NCBI GenBank assembly: GCA_044354135.1
Contig: JBILAN010000006.1
Coordinates: forward strand, 1,887 to 65,886
Length of the DNA stretch: 64,000 bases
Direction: 5' to 3'
From: Luteolibacter sp.
GTDB taxonomy: Bacteria > Verrucomicrobiota > Verrucomicrobiia > Verrucomicrobiales > Akkermansiaceae
The notes beneath the pieces are model-generated. The model saw only the letters and a program-made list of their open reading frames with translations. It did not search any database and was not told the origin of the DNA. Made by a program: the position numbers and the translations under genes. Below, one piece after another: positions 47,103 to 51,667 of this stretch; position 1 is the stretch's first letter; the number at the start of each line of letters is the position of its first letter.

Positions 47103-49091
47103 TCAAGTCGCACTCGGCGCGCCACCGTGTTGAGGTGTTGTGGTGGTAACGGAATTTTTCTTAGGCATGCAAAGCAGGGCTTCGCTGATCAGGAAAAACA
47201 GCATGGCGAGCAGAAACCCGCGCCAGATATGAGTGGAGAGTGAAGGATCTGATGTCTGACCGGCTTGGTCTAGCAGGCGGTAGTCGGTTCCTTCCAGTAT
47301 TAGATCGAGACTATCTTTGGTAGTGGTTTCCAATTCATCTTCAGCAAGTGGGCGGTTCACGGCAGTCAGGCGATTTCCGAGACGGAAGACGCCAGCAACG
47401 TGATCGCTGTTTTCTTTTGAGTAATCATCCACGCGAGTTCGTGTTTCACCGGGTGCAAGCATGGCGGCATCTGAGCCAACTTCCGCTAGGAACGAGGCAT
47501 CAAAGCGCTCCGCGCCGAGAGCGAGGATGCGTTGGACGGCCGGCAGTAGCACATCGGCATCGCCGAGATTGGACCATGTGTAATCGGGAATGCTGCCGAT
47601 GGTCCAGAGCGTGCCTTTGTCGATAATTTTACGGGTGATAAACGGTTCACCATCTTCCCATTTTGCGAGAACAGCGGCATCGCTTTTTGGGATGGCGCGT
47701 TTGATGGCGCGGAGGCGTTCAGCAGGTATGGGTGAACCTTCGACGCCGTCGCGCAATGGGCCATCGGCACGTTCCCAATCTTTCAGGATGAAAAATTTCC
47801 CGGATCCAGATGTGGAGATAGGCTCCCACTGAGTTTCGAGAAACGCCTCGGTGGTTGCTGATTTGGGGCTTGGCAAGAGGACGACCTGGCCACCGCTTGA
47901 GAGGAAATTTTGCAGGGTCTTGGCGCTTTCTCCGGTGGGAAGTGGAGCGGCCCAGAGAACCAACGAGAGTTCGGAAGTTGATGTTGCGGCGAAGGCAGCG
48001 GGCTCAATGCGGGTGACGGTTTGTTTTTCAAAATTAGGCGGTGCGGCAGCGAGGCTCAGATAGTTAGCAGCTTCGTTAGATTCAGAAACGATGATGGATT
48101 TTATCGGACGAGCTGGGCCGTATGCGAAGAAGACGGAGTTATCGCGAGGGTTACCATCGGCCGGGATGGAGAGCCAGCCATGTCCGGATTCATCTTCGAG
48201 TTTGATCGGAATGCGTTTTTGGAAACGAAGTGATTGTCCGGGAAGAGTGATAAGTTCGTTTTGTGAGGCACCGTTGATTTGAGTTGTGACTGGAAGGCTG
48301 ATGCTGCCGCGGTTGTCTTTGGAGCGGTTGAGTTCCAAATTCAGGATCAACCCATCCATGGTTCGGCGGGTGCCGAGCAGGCGTAAAGAGGTGTTGGTTG
48401 CAGCGTCTCCGCTGATCGAAAGGATGCGGATTGCGGGTTTTTCTGGGAGGCTTTGTAGATTCGCGCGCAGAGTGACCCAGCGATCGTCATCGGGACGCCA
48501 GTTAGAGCGTTGGAGATCCGATGCGAGCCAGATTTCCGAGCGGCCCGTGGATTTTGTTAGGACATCTGCAGCGGAGGCTAGCAGGGTGGGCACATTCGCG
48601 GTGGAATCAGTAGCAGCGGTTGCGGAGATTTCACCGAGAACATCAGGCGAAGGTATTTCCTGCGGTTTGCCTGATGCGCTATCGATCACGACAAGACGTG
48701 GGCTTCCGATGTTTGACATCGCATCTCGAATTTTTCGCAGCACAAGCTCGCGCTTGGCATCCTCACCATCACCGGAACGGAGTTCCATGGACGCGCTGCG
48801 ATCCAGAATGAGAACTACGGTATCTATCGTACCTGCGCCCCAGCCGAGGAGTCCGGAAACGATGGGACGGGCGGCGGCAAAGGCGAGTGCTGCGAGTCCG
48901 AGGGTGCGGCATGTTAGGATGAGAATGTGGCGGAGTTTCTTTTTGCCACGTGATTCACGCGTGGCTTTGAGAAGGAACTGCATCGCCGCCCATTGAAGGG
49001 TTTTGTGACGGCGCTTGTTGAGCAAATGGATGATCACTGGGACGCTTGCTGCTGCCAGAAACCAAAGAAGAAGTGGGGAGAGAAAGGTCAT
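47103..49091 (-). CDS. BatA/aerotolerance N-terminal plus VWA-like domain protein
   Basis: MTFLSP...PVIIHLL....WAAMQFL, LAFAAARP, ILDRSASM, ASDLQ; C-terminal TM. Confidence 0.85.
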   Translation of the reverse strand: MTFLSPLLLWFLAAASVPVIIHLLNKRRHKTLQWAAMQFLLKATRESRGKKKLRHILILTCRTLGLAALAFAAARPIVSGLLGWGAGTIDTVVLILDRSASMELRSGDGEDAKRELVLRKIRDAMSNIGSPRLVVIDSASGKPQEIPSPDVLGEISATAATDSTANVPTLLASAADVLTKSTGRSEIWLASDLQRSNWRPDDDRWVTLRANLQSLPEKPAIRILSISGDAATNTSLRLLGTRRTMDGLILNLELNRSKDNRGSISLPVTTQINGASQNELITLPGQSLRFQKRIPIKLEDESGHGWLSIPADGNPRDNSVFFAYGPARPIKSIIVSESNEAANYLSLAAAPPNFEKQTVTRIEPAAFAATSTSELSLVLWAAPLPTGESAKTLQNFLSSGGQVVLLPSPKSATTEAFLETQWEPISTSGSGKFFILKDWERADGPLRDGVEGSPIPAERLRAIKRAIPKSDAAVLAKWEDGEPFITRKIIDKGTLWTIGSIPDYTWSNLGDADVLLPAVQRILALGAERFDASFLAEVGSDAAMLAPGETRTRVDDYSKENSDHVAGVFRLGNRLTAVNRPLAEDELETTTKDSLDLILEGTDYRLLDQAGQTSDPSLSTHIWRGFLLAMLFFLISEALLCMPKKNSVTTTTPQHGGAPSAT

Positions 49092-49093
49092 TT

Positions 49094-49552
49094 CATTAAA
49101 ATTCTAAATCTTAAGTATTAAATTCTAAACTAAGAAAAATGGTTCATTTGCTCACTTGGTTCAGTTGCGTAGGATAGTAGCCATGATTTTCACAAGTTCG
49201 TCGGATTCTTTATAAAGGTCACGGAGCGTTTGTTTTAGTGATTCATCTTTCGATGTCTCTCCTAGTAGGCGAAGCCAAAGACGACACTCGCTCGCTTCCT
49301 TTTTAGGGATACGTATAAGGAAGAAAAAATCAGGCTTAGAAACCGCGTTATTGGCTTCAATATAGTTTGCTGCAACAGATCCGGAAGCTCGAAGGACTTG
49401 ATCGATATCTGTCCATTGCTGTCGAGTCCAGTTGATGTCACCGATGCAGCGACGAACCTTGAGGGCAAATTGGTAGGTTCGTTCATCCAAATCATATAAC
49501 GGTTTTTCATCCTCCATTTCTTCGTTTAGGATTTCGTGCTTAAGATTTAATG
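49094..49552. mobile_element. Four-helix-bundle cassette bounded by inverted heptamer arrays
   Basis: Left arm CATTAAA(A) TTCTAAA TCTTAAG TATTAAA TTCTAAA (49094-49129). Reverse complement of the right arm: CATTAAA TCTTAAG CACGAAA TCCTAAA (49525-49552). Interrupts a MoxR-DUF58-BatA operon. Confidence 0.6.
49161..49517 (-). CDS. Four helix bundle protein (TIGR02436 / 23S rRNA-IVS protein family)
   Basis: L.ERTYQFAL.V, QVLRASGSVAANYIEA, DF...I..KKEA.E...WL.LL, E..EL..I...I. Confidence 0.9.
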   Translation of the reverse strand: MEDEKPLYDLDERTYQFALKVRRCIGDINWTRQQWTDIDQVLRASGSVAANYIEANNAVSKPDFFFLIRIPKKEASECRLWLRLLGETSKDESLKQTLRDLYKESDELVKIMATILRN

Positions 49553-50446
49553 CTTTGCTTTTGGTAGGCGCGCTGTGAGGAACTCGCGGAGAAGCGGTTC
49601 GAGCGGGGTGTCGGTGGTGACGAGTTGGTAATCGGCGTTGGCGTCGTGCGCTTTGTCGCGGACGTTTTTCAGGAATTCGTTAAGCGCGGTGTGGTATTCG
49701 TCGGCGATGAGGTTAGGCTCGACGACGAGCGCGGTATTATCTTCGAGGTCGACGAAGCGGTGAGGGCGATCGAAGTTGAATCCAATTTCCTGAGGATCCA
49801 TGAGATGGAAGAGCGAGATATCGTGTTTGCGATAACGCAAGTGCTGGAACGCGTCGGCGAGTTCCGCGGTATCGGTGAAGAAATCGGAGAGGATCACGAT
49901 GAAAGCGCGTTGGCCGATTTTTTCTGCGATTGTGTGGAGTGCGGGAATTAATCCAGTTTCACCAGACGGCTCAACTTTTTCGATGGTGGTAAAGAAGCGT
50001 TCAAGGTGTGCGGCGCGGCGGGAAGGCGGGACTTCGAGGTGGAGTTTGTCGGTGCAGATCGAAAGACCTGCGGCGTCGCCTTGGTTGACTAACAGATAAG
50101 CGAGCGATGCGGCGATACGGCGGGCGTATTGGATTTTACTTTCCAAACCCGGGCCATGAAAATTCATCGAACCGGAGGCGTCTATCACGAAGTAGGCGCG
50201 CAGGTTGGTATCGGCTTCGAATTCCTTGATGTAGAATCGGTCCGAGCGGGCAAAGGCTTTCCAATCGAGGCGGCGGGTGTCATCGCCAGGAACGTATTTT
50301 CGATATTCTGCAAACTCGACGGATGAACCGCGGTGAGGGGAGCGATGTTTACCCGCGACGTTACCCATCATCGGGACGCGCGACTCGATAGGCAGAGAGC
50401 CGAGGCGGGAGAGGAGGTCGCTGTCGATGAAAGAGTGGGCGGACAT
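49547..50446 (-). CDS. DUF58 domain protein
   Basis: G.HRSP.RG.SVEFAEYR.Y.PGDD.RR.DWKA.AR, IDASGSM, ILSDFF. Confidence 0.92.
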   Translation of the reverse strand: MSAHSFIDSDLLSRLGSLPIESRVPMMGNVAGKHRSPHRGSSVEFAEYRKYVPGDDTRRLDWKAFARSDRFYIKEFEADTNLRAYFVIDASGSMNFHGPGLESKIQYARRIAASLAYLLVNQGDAAGLSICTDKLHLEVPPSRRAAHLERFFTTIEKVEPSGETGLIPALHTIAEKIGQRAFIVILSDFFTDTAELADAFQHLRYRKHDISLFHLMDPQEIGFNFDRPHRFVDLEDNTALVVEPNLIADEYHTALNEFLKNVRDKAHDANADYQLVTTDTPLEPLLREFLTARLPKAKH

Positions 50447-50448
50447 GG

Positions 50449-50610
50449 TTAGAATTCAGAGGCCAGAATCCAGAGGCCAGAAAAGAGTTTTTTAGCGGGG
50501 GATTAAGATGGTTGGGAGAGCTTGTTGATGAGAGAGCCCAGCATTCGGGATAGCTCGCAGGTTTCTTCGATCATTTAGTCTGGTCTCTGGCTTCTGGCCT
50601 CTGATATCTC
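50449..50610. repeat. Inverted heptamer arrays (CCAGAGG/CCAGAAT versus TCTGGnn) around a four-helix-bundle remnant
   Basis: TTAGAAT TCAGAGG CCAGAAT CCAGAGG CCAGAAA (50449-50483); TCTGGTC TCTGGCT TCTGGCC TCTGATA (about 50579-50606). Confidence 0.7.
50503..50574 (-). pseudogene. C-terminal remnant of a four-helix-bundle gene
   Basis: Translates as MIEETCELSRMLGSLINKLSQPS*, which resembles the last helix of the family (E..E..rML..Li.kL). Confidence 0.55.
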
Positions 50611-51667
50611 ATTTATCCTTCATCTCAGAAATGAGTTTCTGGACGATTTTCTTGGAGGTCATGCCTTGGGATTCGGCGGCGAAGTTGGTGATGACGCGGT
50701 GATTGAGGACGGCGGGTGCGACGGCTTCGATGTCTTCGATGGAGGCCATGTAGTTACCGCGGAGGGCGGCGCGGGATTTCGCACCGAGGATGAGGTATTG
50801 GACGGCGCGCGGGCCAGCTCCCCAACCGACGGTGTCTTTGATCCATTGTGGAGACTCGGGTTGGCCGGGGCGGGTTTTGCGAACGATCTCGACTGCGTAA
50901 TCGTAGAGGTGATCTGGCACAGGCACACGGCGAACGAGTTGTTGGAACGCGATGATTTTTTCACCGTCGATAAGTTTCGCGAGCGCTTGTTTGGCGGCCC
51001 CAGTGGTTTCACGAGCGATGCGTTTTTCTTCCTCTGCGGATGGGTATTCAACTTCGATGAGGAACATGAAACGGTCCAACTGGGCTTCAGGAAGGGGGTA
51101 GGTTCCCTCTTGTTCGATCGGGTTTTGGGTTGCTAGCACGAAGAATGGAGGTTTGAGAGTATAGGTCTTACCGAGCACTGTGACTTTGTTTTCCTGCATC
51201 GCCTCAAGCATGGCGGACTGGGTTTTGGCGGGGGCGCGGTTGATTTCGTCTGCGAGCAGAAGGTTGGCGAACACAGGACCTTGGACAAATTCAAATTCAC
51301 GTTTGCCGCCGGTAGTTTCCTGGATGATGTCAGTGCCGGTGATATCGGCGGGCATGAGGTCCGGAGTGAACTGAATGCGGTTAAAAGAGAGGTTGAAGGT
51401 CTGAGCAACCGAGGAGACCAATAGGGTTTTGGCGAGACCGGGGACACCCATAAGGAGGGCATGTCCGCGGGCAAAAAGGGCGATGGCTAGTTTTTCAATG
51501 ACATCATCTTGACCGACGATGATTTTGGAGAGTTCCGCGCGGAAAGCTTGGTAAGTTTTACCCAAATCATCAATAGCGGCGACATCGTCTGGTGGGAGCT
51601 GGGTGAGCGATGCTGCAGAAACGGTTTCTGAAACGGATTGGGCGGGGATTTCTTCTAGGGTATCCAT
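50609..51667 (-). CDS. moxR: MoxR family AAA+ ATPase
   Basis: GVPGLAKT, RIQFTPDLMPADITG, LADEINRAPAKTQSAMLEAMQE, ATQNPIEQEGTYPLPEAQLDRF. Confidence 0.95.
   Translation of the reverse strand: MDTLEEIPAQSVSETVSAASLTQLPPDDVAAIDDLGKTYQAFRAELSKIIVGQDDVIEKLAIALFARGHALLMGVPGLAKTLLVSSVAQTFNLSFNRIQFTPDLMPADITGTDIIQETTGGKREFEFVQGPVFANLLLADEINRAPAKTQSAMLEAMQENKVTVLGKTYTLKPPFFVLATQNPIEQEGTYPLPEAQLDRFMFLIEVEYPSAEEEKRIARETTGAAKQALAKLIDGEKIIAFQQLVRRVPVPDHLYDYAVEIVRKTRPGQPESPQWIKDTVGWGAGPRAVQYLILGAKSRAALRGNYMASIEDIEAVAPAVLNHRVITNFAAESQGMTSKKIVQKLISEMKDK

Follow-up and report, generated by a model that had tools for sequence, protein, structure and literature searches.

What does a 118-residue protein gene flanked by inverted heptamer arrays do between two genes of a MoxR operon, and are the arrays sites in DNA, a stem in RNA, or neither? 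The features of the locus are as follows, with positions in the window, the whole 64-kb stretch of DNA that was analyzed.

50609-51667, minus strand: MoxR gene, at the upstream end of the host operon order.
50447-50608, minus strand: second, decayed cassette between moxR and DUF58, with inverted arms and a 23-codon ORF.
49547-50446, minus strand: DUF58 (vWA-type) gene, the upstream host, its stop codon supplied by the cassette arm.
49092-49552, minus strand: four-helix-bundle (4HB) cassette, ~460 bp, between the DUF58 stop and the batA start.
49517-49552, minus strand: upstream (5') arm, CATTAAATCTTAAGCACGAAATCCTAAACGAAGAAATG, made up of the 7/14-nt units AAGCATT AAATCTT AAGCACG AAATCCT AAACGAA.
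49161-49517 including the stop, minus strand: 4HB gene, 118 aa, PF05635/TIGR02436 ('23S rRNA intervening-sequence protein' family).
49138-49160, minus strand: unique spacer from the 4HB stop to the downstream arm, with a direct repeat TGAACCA...TGAACCA overlapping the stop codon.
49092-49137, minus strand: downstream (3') arm, TTTCTTAGTTTAGAATTTAATACTTAAGATTTAGAATTTTAATG + AA, an inverted copy of the upstream arm with one heptamer more.
47103-49091, minus strand: BatA-N-domain protein gene (batA), 662 aa, the downstream host, ATG at 49089-49091.

Profile scores (TIGR02436, 60.6 bits with a cut-off of 24; PF05635, 39.4 bits with a cut-off of 33.8) and gene order agree with the preliminary description, which had placed a TIGR02436-type gene between DUF58 and batA in the MoxR operon; the neighbours of the gene are MoxR, DUF58, BatA and PanE. 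The conserved family motif GxxRxxxSxxxNxxE (Lin 2006; PMC3936711) is kept as Q40-R43-S47-N51-E54, residues invariant or nearly so in two alignments. The AF2 monomer model (pLDDT 94.1; helices 10-26, 32-56, 61-88, 92-117) is an up-down four-helix bundle like 2rld and 2gsc, which are also the best Foldseek matches (2rld_E, TM 0.78; 2gsc_E, TM 0.76), Avd coming next; phmmer against 2rld gives E = 5e-8. A pN/pS of ~0.23 among orthologues, calculated where synonymous sites are saturated, indicates that the 4HB protein is under purifying selection. The gene is the sole ORF of the cassette and lacks a match to any catalytic family. No transposase is found at the locus, no reverse transcriptase adjoins the 4HB gene, the locus holds no long direct repeat such as a DGR would have, and the interval 48900-50800 has no rRNA or other Rfam match.

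The arms form an inverted repeat of 33 nt (49105-49137 / 49517-49549), 85% complementary. As had been described, the two arrays are inverted, both end in CATTAAA, which is the outer end of either arm, and both contain TCTTAAG. The 7-bp tandem periodicity claimed for them is real but degenerate: identity is 0.55 at lag 7 in 49094-49140 (z +2.5) and 0.59 at lag 14 in 49515-49555 (z +3.6), and TRF calls a single period-14 array at the locus (49526-49555). Such periodic heptamers, placed 5' of the ORF, are the arrangement of Coxiella-type intervening sequences (IVSs). The upstream arm includes the last DUF58 codon, CAT, and the DUF58 stop, TAA (49547-49549), which the right array was correctly said to provide, and its inner end is the first base of the 4HB ATG. 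The downstream arm runs right up to the batA ATG; the left array, previously located 3 bp from this codon, is 2 nt away, as its CATTAAA starts at 49094. The DUF58 C-terminus (...LPKAKH followed by the stop) is kept in both filled and empty alleles.

Among 2457 crude genes of the own genome, the flank-to-flank inverted-repeat score of the 4HB gene is 41 and ranks 11 (median 13, 99th percentile 25), and 8 of the 12 4HB genes lie within the top 20 scores. TRF arrays of period 7/14 on both sides were found for 5/12 4HB genes and 28/2425 other genes (Fisher p = 2.5e-7), a count to be read knowing that TRF under-calls degenerate arrays and that aligning the two flanks is the better detector. In this genome-wide comparison, of the kind proposed earlier, period-7/14 arrays are enriched beside 4HB genes. 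The arms of this cassette have no other occurrence in the own genome. Periods 7 and 14 dominate the TRF output genome-wide, with at least 51 inverted pairs.

Twelve 4HB paralogues reside in the 2.9-Mb genome. At least 10 have the arm-gene-arm layout, in sense orientation within co-directional gene strings, and of the 11 whose two neighbours were both called, 9 share the orientation of the two; binomial values for orientation refer to hand-entered tallies (9/9, 13/14) and a 50% null. The paralogues occupy unrelated operons (metK-ahcY, pheS-pheT, fcl-gmd), and their copy number varies from 0 to 12 per genome within the genus. Arm sequences differ among paralogues and track protein similarity: cognate arms score 31-72 vs. 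a non-cognate median of 14, and arm similarity correlates with protein identity (Spearman 0.47 and 0.46, Mantel 0/500). One paralogue family has been copied to two loci, and the homology among C98a, C98b and C129 is bounded by the outer arm ends, as expected of elements with terminal inverted repeats (TIRs). These comparisons indicate that the gene and its two arms form a single unit: they are passed on together, copied together to new loci, and also undergo internal deletion and loss together. No recent movement is visible, because the cassette has no catalytic domain, the genome no near-identical cassette copies, and target-site duplications are found neither against the empty alleles at DUF58|batA nor at the C98/C129 copies.

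Within the subfamily, conservation of the arm unit AAGCAC(T/G)AAAT reaches from Verrucomicrobiota as far as Planctomycetota and CPR bacteria. The pattern AAGCA[CT][TG]AAAT lies upstream of 26/43 homologues from five phyla, in a single-protein scan biased toward the ANYIEANN subfamily, and occurs twice in the whole own genome. Non-cognate arms within the subfamily pair as well as cognate ones. These data indicate an arm sequence specific to the protein subfamily and conserved across phyla.

The DUF58|batA junction is empty and compact in G003 and G009 (cacTGATGac), the batA ATG overlapping the DUF58 stop (TGATG). In G007, L072-L083, L089 and L090 the site holds the same cassette, which is widespread at this junction within the genus. 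G010 carries here a 63%-identical 4HB gene with different arms, which are perfectly self-complementary (33/33), and other relatives have ORF-less arms or toxin-antitoxin genes. The 4HB gene is missing at the junction in all six sampled genomes of other families (L035, L036, L038, L039, L041, L042; 2-38-nt gaps), as in L040, where a 133-nt gap holds a TTTTCAG heptamer array. Empty TGATG alleles next to filled relatives support the earlier claim of an insertion, and the alignments indicate that the cassette is inserted in sense orientation exactly in the DUF58 stop/batA start junction. A junction of the form AAGCACTGATGCTT would be a candidate target for the cassette.

The polymorphism at orthologous sites may reflect gain or loss. 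The empty allele of the sister genome G003 is probably not the pre-insertion state, as this genome is nested inside a clade (L073, G000, L072) sharing the cassette with derived end features; since internal support is only 91/51, both gain and near-precise loss are possible. Even sister taxa are already saturated at synonymous sites, so that the insertion is not datable by dS and vertical descent with many losses is inseparable from repeated site-specific insertion. Arms are ~85% identical in G000 and G007, at this degree of saturation. The empty site of G009, AAGCA-CTGA-TGCTT, is a 5-bp mini-palindrome containing AAGCAC, the canonical outer arm unit. Insertion of the cassette in the loop of a pre-existing hairpin was considered and dropped, as the palindrome may be target microhomology, an excision footprint or a coincidence.

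Filled, empty and decayed states were found at three junctions (moxR|DUF58, DUF58|batA, pheS|pheT), along with internally deleted remnants and ORF-less or chimeric arms. The moxR|DUF58 remnant has inverted arms of CCAGAGG/CCAGAAG heptamers (~50578-50608 and 50451-50484), and its 23-codon ORF (50503-50574) matches the C-terminal helix of the intact 4HB protein in G016 and G020. The cassette at 49092-49552 had been regarded as the intact reference state of this remnant; the remnant comes from a different 4HB subfamily whose arms differ too, and its intact state is that of G016 and G020. Many ORF-less heptamer hairpins populate the genome. Some are gene-deleted cassettes (the moxR|DUF58 remnant, C75, C131, the C140-type family), an origin that does not hold for all of them: most ORF-less pairs of the GATTGAC family, which is also found beside ordinary genes, are arranged as rc(arm)-loop-arm, opposite to the cassette and like the joint between two tandem cassettes. 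Unrelated PDDEXK_3 (PD-(D/E)XK nuclease) genes feature the same arm design at the same junctions. Phd/ParE pairs, DUF6036 and KilA-N genes also reside at these junctions in relatives, and no such arms were seen with them.

The reading favoured here, to which a probability of roughly 0.55 is assigned, is that the segment is a promoterless cassette of the same kind as the ORF-bearing 23S rRNA IVSs, its arms being TIR-like cis sites. The cassette would lack a promoter of its own and be transcribed by read-through from the host operon. Each arm would be an array of putative binding units for the probably pentameric 4HB protein that the cassette encodes, a protein conjectured to bind them, and the two arms would define the limits of the unit when it is inserted, copied or maintained, the chemistry coming from host functions or another element. 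As one arm is the inverted copy of the other, pairing between them can also fold the transcript into a long stem, which would bury the 4HB start codon and bring the DUF58 stop beside the batA start; resembling the RNase III substrate of rRNA IVSs, this stem could explain how the insert is tolerated within a translationally coupled operon. In its behaviour the cassette resembles a selfish gene cassette reduced to a minimum, for which no enzyme of its own is known. Of the suggestions in the preliminary description, the best-fitting one is that the arrays delimit, as cis ends, a mobile unit lacking a transposase: the primary sequence of the arms is conserved with the subfamily across phyla, and no transposase is present. 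Several observations sit uneasily with TIR-like sites all the same. Movement has left neither target-site duplications nor near-identical copies, the arms are unique in the genome, and a catalytic domain is missing. The 4HB protein is not basic (19 K+R vs. 20 D+E), unlike Avd. The complementarity over the 4HB start codon is not needed for pure protein binding, the layout shared by PDDEXK_3 genes implies that arm function may not depend on the 4HB protein, and the mostly opposite topology of the GATTGAC pairs is unaccounted for.

The mismatches between arms help to tell DNA sites from an RNA stem. On the sense strand of 55 cassettes, 57 G.U and 79 A.C mismatches were counted, hence no G.U excess in a set of 136 informative mismatches, which gives the test limited power and leaves out rRNA-resident IVSs as calibration; transversion mismatches are as frequent as transitions. 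Lack of a G.U excess favours TIR-like, protein-specific cis sites, with the RNA stem as a by-product. The converse model, in which the arms exist to pair within the polycistronic mRNA, the cassette RNA is cut out or insulated by RNase III, the insertion is thereby non-polar and the DNA ends are functionless, is unlikely, although it would account well for the MFE fold of the transcript, which closes on the arms (z = -2.79) as in IVSs, for a complementarity extending beyond the repeats across the 4HB start codon, and for the strong sense-orientation bias within operons. It would also suit the G010 arms, self-complementary throughout though unlike those of G000 and G007, and the experiments showing that RNase III cuts the homologous stem of the Coxiella IVS inside its heptamer repeats (PMC4990558). 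Against it, pairing alone would not require nearly as much cross-phylum conservation of arm primary sequence as is seen, non-cognate arms pair equally well, and the variant units GTATT and GCACT are mirrored in just 4/6 aligned cassettes (7 align in register for covariation); the stem of the cassette itself has 5 non-wobble mismatches and a 7-nt bulge. As for the proposal that the arms pair within the mRNA so that the gene is looped out in the manner of an IVS, the predicted fold agrees with it, and the mismatches show no wobble signature.

Conservation of the arms also bears on a passive origin, in which permissive junctions gather small genes by horizontal transfer and homologous recombination, and functionless arms arise, and keep their complementarity, by replication slippage in arrays and quasi-palindrome (template-switch) correction. 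The array abundance noted above, the Phd/ParE, DUF6036 and KilA-N genes at the same junctions, the absence of a G.U bias and the perfect G010 arms, which suggest homogenisation, would all agree with such an origin, yet it is quite improbable: arms stay ~85% identical where synonymous sites are saturated, the same 11-nt arm unit goes along with this protein subfamily in five phyla, duplicated copies stop exactly at arm ends, and arms accompany 4HB and PDDEXK_3 genes but were not seen with the other genes at these sites. Hardly credible is that the arms belong to the host, as REP-like intergenic hairpins or terminators independent of the 4HB gene that happens to lie between them, or that this gene is a genuine MoxR/Bat operon member. 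The many ORF-less hairpins, the GATTGAC elements flanking ordinary genes and the wide occurrence of the cassette at the junction point this way; but its arms are found nowhere else in the genome, they accompany the gene in other genomic contexts and phyla, the gene is missing at the junction in G003, G009 and the six genomes of other families, its paralogues lie in unrelated operons, and copy number within the genus ranges from nil to 12.

The closest known relative of the cassette is the S23p IVS of Coxiella burnetii, in which a PF05635-family gene lies inside a 28-bp stem cut by RNase III, with heptamers just 5' of the ORF (PMC4990558); the same source names ORF-bearing 23S rRNA IVSs in Leptospira, Xanthomonas and Brucella. 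The two are alike in gene family, size (428 nt vs. ~460 nt here), terminal inverted repeats forming a ~30-bp stem, tandem heptamers directly 5' of the ORF, and a start region included in the stem; a mobile element without a recognised enzyme was proposed for the IVS decades ago. They differ because IVSs reside in helix 25 or 45 of the 23S rRNA, and the cassette between two coding genes of an operon, DUF58 and BatA. The Coxiella ORF is decaying and probably untranslated, the one described here under apparent purifying selection; RNase III excision was shown for Coxiella and is conceivable for the cassette, which offers filled, empty and decayed alleles and intragenomic copies for comparison. 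Avd (4dwl, 8ub7) shares the four-helix-bundle fold (TM 0.61-0.65) and is a pentameric barrel, related to 'S23 ribosomal proteins', which binds the structured RNA of its own retroelement, the pentamer having a dedicated RNA-binding element in the DGR RNP (bioRxiv 10.1101/2023.10.23.563531). In contrast, neither a reverse transcriptase nor a template/variable repeat adjoins the 4HB gene, whose non-basic product matches best the non-DGR members 2rld and 2gsc.

TIR transposons with MITE-like derivatives and REP/RAYT systems also combine inverted ends specific to the subfamily of the encoded protein, many-copy ORF-less derivatives, presence/absence polymorphism and copies ending at inverted repeats. 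The cassette differs in having no transposase, other catalytic domain or target-site duplication, in being limited to stop/start junctions in sense orientation, and in arms made of arrays of 7/14-nt units rather than one terminal site. Integron cassettes (attC) are likewise promoterless small ORFs of obscure cargo function, transcribed by read-through, with an imperfect palindromic site, and can be tandem, as are the cassettes in L078, L080, L090 and C98; the cassettes analyzed here have full-length arms on both sides and are dispersed in housekeeping operons, not collected in a single array, and no integrase or attI platform was noted with them. Heptanucleotide arrays are known as cyanobacterial STRR, as GGGNATC repeats of Xanthomonas and Nostoc (PMC4692102), and as four- or five-unit elements in Geobacter (PMC2700814). 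Like the arms, they number ~4-6 heptamers each, lie near stop/start codons where co-oriented genes are separated by transcribed intergenic DNA, and at times form hairpins. Unlike the arms, which are inverted pairs around a specific gene, they are treated as free-standing (G-quadruplex or regulator sites), with no gene-family link reported. A full-text literature search returned no paper linking the 4HB gene family to inverted heptamer arrays outside rRNA or to this operon layout. It is tentatively proposed that 4HB cassettes and the parallel PDDEXK_3 cassettes may form a widespread, undescribed class of minimal mobile elements, in which each protein would recognise the subfamily-specific 7/14-nt units of its own arms. 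The elements would colonise stop/start junctions of conserved operons in sense orientation and decay to the ORF-less heptamer hairpins strewn over many bacterial genomes, the 23S rRNA IVSs being members that landed in rRNA helices.

Since the early 1990s the 23S rRNA IVSs with their conserved ORF have lacked an explanation, as has the excess of heptanucleotide repeats between bacterial genes. A gene-plus-heptamer-stem unit in ordinary operons makes both puzzles testable by comparison, as empty, filled, deleted and chimeric alleles at three junctions in one genus, and copies ending at arms, are open to it. The locus poses the questions of whether a 4HB pentamer binds the arms, whether the stem is processed, and how a 460-bp insert in a coupled gene pair avoids polarity. 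As for annotation, such small genes would not be members of the operons in which they reside, and many 'intergenic heptamer hairpins' may be remains of cassettes.

The minus strand carries four consecutive genes from moxR to batA, with a decayed cassette after the first:

50609-51667, minus strand: MoxR AAA+ ATPase, first gene of the four
50447-50608, minus strand: decayed cassette at the moxR-DUF58 junction, a 23-codon ORF enclosed by inverted CCAGAGG/CCAGAAG arms
49547-50446, minus strand: DUF58/vWA protein, second gene
49161-49517, minus strand: 118-aa four-helix-bundle (4HB) protein (TIGR02436 60.6 bits, PF05635 39.4 bits, both above curated cut-offs)
47103-49091, minus strand: 662-aa protein with a BatA N-terminal domain, fourth gene

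An inverted repeat (49517-49549 vs 49105-49137, 33 nt, 85% complementary) brackets the 4HB gene. The upstream arm reads, in gene orientation, CATTAAATCTTAAGCACGAAATCCTAAACGAAGAAATG; the downstream arm, when reverse-complemented (CATTAAAATTCTAAATCTTAAGTATTAAATTCTAAACTAAGAAAAATG), repeats this sequence and has an additional heptamer. The DUF58 stop TAA falls within the upstream arm, at the inner end of which lies the 4HB start codon, and the batA ATG lies 2 nt beyond the end of the downstream arm. The periodicity of the arms is degenerate (lag 7, z = +2.5 in one arm; lag 14, z = +3.6 in the other), and a period-14 array is detected by the tandem-repeat finder (TRF). Given these measurements, the details listed in the preliminary description are all in the sequence. 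The outer arm unit corresponds to the final two codons of DUF58 and its stop (AAG CAY TAA AT; 49547-49552), the canonical unit AAGCAC-TAAAT overlapping the Lys-His codons and the stop. AAGCAC is the end of DUF58 in empty alleles too (L014 and L029), and the empty junction of the relative G009, AAGCACTGATGCTT (AAGCA-CTGA-TGCTT), is a 5-bp palindrome; these features may reflect microhomology at the target, be the footprint of an excision or arise by coincidence. The protein is predicted as a confident four-helix bundle (pLDDT 94), its nearest structures being the pentameric 2rld and 2gsc, followed by Avd, the accessory protein of diversity-generating retroelements (DGRs).

Genes were crudely called over the whole assembly (2.88 Mb, 157 contigs), and the best inverted alignment between 70-nt flanks was scored for each of 2457 genes. 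The cassette scores 41, against a median of 13 and a 99th percentile of 25, and 8 of the 12 TIGR02436 genes of the genome rank within the top twenty. Judged by eye, inverted arrays of short tandem units flank at least 10 of the 12, the units varying by paralogue (AGACAGA, GATTGAT, GGGATAT, TTAGTTA, GCGGAGAG, AAACTTT, GCTGAAA). Crossing period-7 arrays with TIGR02436 genes, as had been proposed, revealed enrichment: TRF arrays of period 7/14 occur on both sides of 5/12 4HB genes vs 28/2425 others (p = 2.5e-7). The arm-gene-arm layout is not due to chance. When all upstream arms are compared with all downstream arms, cognate pairs score 31-72 and the remainder have a median of 14, the exceptions being paralogues with related proteins, whose arms are related too. 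Periods 7 and 14 dominate the TRF output of the genome at score >= 46 (53 and 63 arrays; period 6, 3 arrays; period 8, 23). For at least 51 arrays an inverted partner lies no more than 1.5 kb away, and the loops cluster at 20-100 and 350-470 nt. Across the genus the 4HB family ranges from 0 to 12 copies per genome.

The DUF58 locus was retrieved for 24 congeneric genomes and 16 genomes of the same order, and the comparison of the DUF58-batA junction advocated in the preliminary description uncovered filled, empty, ORF-less and replaced states. In G003 and G009 stop and start overlap (cacTGATGac) and there is no insert; six of seven genomes of other families have ATGA-type overlaps or gaps of 2-38 nt, the seventh (L040) a 133-nt gap with a TTTTCAG heptamer array. 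G007 carries the same cassette (73% aa identity, homologous arms), G010 a 63%-identical 4HB gene with arms unlike those of the genome under study, yet matched to each other at 33/33 positions. Heptamer arms without an ORF are found in G012, G024 and G019, and a Phd/ParE toxin-antitoxin pair instead in G021, G001, G018, G023 and G008. Fourteen further Luteolibacter/Akkermansiaceae MAGs with the cassette at this junction, some with a second in tandem, came from scanning species-representative genomes. Tandem cassettes are present in L078, L080 and L090 (about 1555-1800), where another left-type arm, GAAGCACTAAATCT..., and another short ORF stand between the 4HB cassette and batA. Other small accessory modules, Phd/YefM-ParE pairs, DUF6036 nucleotidyltransferase-like genes and KilA-N genes, occupy the two junctions in relatives (DUF58-batA in L015, L026, L027, L031, L034; moxR-DUF58 in L022, L023, L025, L031, L034). 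Within the genome, homology among three 4HB copies 85-90% identical (C98a, C98b, C129) stops exactly at the outer arm ends; no target-site duplication is visible at any site compared. By sequence comparison the cassette is an insertion, the unit being arm-gene-arm.

Similar variation is seen elsewhere. The ORF of the decayed cassette (MIEETCELSRMLGSLINKLSQPS) matches the C-terminal helix of the 4HB protein in intact cassettes of another subfamily found at moxR-DUF58 in G016 and G020; G001 has a similar internally deleted remnant there, other genomes have DUF6036 or KilA-N genes, and six have no insert. Between pheS and pheT (L117-L138) a 4HB cassette resides in the genome under study (C23:9380-9880) and three relatives. 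Six relatives have a PDDEXK_3 cassette there, bounded by heptamer arms of its own, another six have arm pairs that lack an ORF or are chimeric, and G001 has only 10 nt. The chimeric remnants of G007 and G010, in which the left arm is of the AAGCAC family and the right arm of a different one, suggest former tandem cassettes that later underwent deletion.

Synonymous sites are saturated between all genomes compared, which precludes dating the cassette. Purifying selection on the 4HB gene is indicated by its pN/pS of about 0.23. Relative to L072, the closest relative found, identity is 91.5% (nt) in DUF58, 95.5% in the 4HB CDS and 94-97% in the arms. The arms are also constrained, since they are about 85% identical to those of G007 although pS of the 4HB gene is 0.77. 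In the DUF58 tree, empty-site G003 lies inside a cassette-bearing clade, (L073,(G003,(G000,L072))), G000 being the genome under study (support 100/99 for the clade, 91/51 for the inner node). Because every clade mate has the cassette, and with the same derived ends, the empty allele of G003 is probably a near-precise loss. The cassette is widespread enough to be old in the genus, where it was later lost or replaced many times.

The same architecture, inverted heptamer arrays on both sides, is shown by genes of the nuclease-fold family PDDEXK_3 (PF13366), which are unrelated to 4HB and lie in sense inside gene strings (C135:7647-7997, C95:1309-1626, C144:258-599, C117:84404-84743, C52:7360-7698, C129:53291-53632). 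Their arms begin TTTAACCAC/TTGAACCGC, the outer ends in this genome reading TTTAACCAC(GGAxxxx)n. The two types of cassette compete for the same junctions. A GATTGAC-type arm is found at about 70 loci, mostly as reverse complement-loop-arm, the opposite topology to the cassette (C118:3565-3669, C26:49682-49790, C32:3269-3384, C69:10274-10370). These dispersed palindromes have a 30-nt loop and the GATTGAC/GATTGAT arm of the C98 and C129 4HB copies, and the 3' base of the hairpin carries the first 4HB codons, GAATGAAGA. IS200-like Y1 transposase genes of the REP-associated type, with inverted repeats of their own (C23:12388-12996, C26:35276-35974, C24:4015-4554), are a separate repeat system. At C57:11926-12117, a 232-aa open frame contains a weak match to TIGR02436 (30 bits, covering profile positions 11-69 of 109); the GATCTGT-type arrays around it are themselves near-palindromic, and several relatives have similar partial-profile hits in frames of 200-290 aa.

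Pairing of the arms in RNA may be the selected property. In the predicted fold of the 486-nt transcript the arms form the closing stem (-115.7 kcal/mol, z = -2.79), with the 4HB start codon inside the pairing, and the stem of the homologous Coxiella 23S rRNA intervening sequence (IVS) is cleaved by RNase III (PMC4990558). Sense orientation in co-directional gene strings (9/11 4HB genes with both neighbours called, 4/5 PDDEXK_3 genes) goes in the same direction, the printed binomial p of 0.004 and 0.002 referring to hand-entered tallies of 9/9 and 13/14 and a 50% null; host gene pairs include metK-ahcY, pheS-pheT and fcl-gmd. However, mismatches between arms, counted on the sense strand of 55 cassettes, show no tolerance bias toward wobble pairs (57 G.U, 79 A.C, 141 transversion-type), and variant arm units are mirrored in only 4/6 aligned cassettes. 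In the ANYIEANN subfamily cognate arms pair no better than non-cognate arms, and the arm is kept as a sequence, AAGCACTAAATCTTAAG(C/T)A(C/T)TAAATTCTAAAC, across Verrucomicrobiota, Planctomycetota, CPR phyla, Bacteroidota and Firestonebacteria. The 11-mer AAGCA[CT][TG]AAAT is found upstream of 26/43 genes, yet only twice in the whole genome under study. Over 76 cassettes arm similarity follows protein identity (rho 0.47 and 0.46, Mantel 0/500).

On the wobble, conservation and arm-protein correlation tests, we rank above pairing alone the reading that the arms would be subfamily-specific cis sites, probably bound by the 4HB protein of the cassette itself. RNA stems would then be a by-product of inverted arms that makes the insert tolerable. 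The arm pattern is that of transposon-like terminal inverted repeats (TIRs), which are inverted because both ends need the same protein-specific site, not because the ends pair. In a DGR ribonucleoprotein, the Avd pentamer binds a dedicated RNA element (bioRxiv 10.1101/2023.10.23.563531). The preliminary description had combined a mobile unit with looping-out of the gene in RNA: the former, an arm-gene-arm unit with TIR-like arms, is favoured, and the latter is a hypothesis that the wobble test does not favour, so that the interpretation is partly supported.

Among described objects the nearest is the ORF-bearing 23S rRNA IVS, which carries the same gene family, is of similar size and has both a terminal inverted-repeat stem and tandem heptamers ahead of its ORF, but is defined by an rRNA location that the cassette does not share. 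For want of a reverse transcriptase the cassette does not count as a DGR module; it is no canonical transposon either, because enzyme and target-site duplication are missing, and is not an integron cassette in the strict sense. Heptanucleotide arrays are known free-standing, with no gene link, in Xanthomonas/Nostoc (PMC4692102) and Geobacter (PMC2700814), and PF05635 genes have been noted in cas loci (PMC3936711). A full-text literature search did not find the PF05635/TIGR02436 family with inverted heptamer arms in operons. The system is of high interest because it ties two orphan gene families to rRNA IVSs and heptamer repeats, and because filled, empty and decayed alleles occur naturally.
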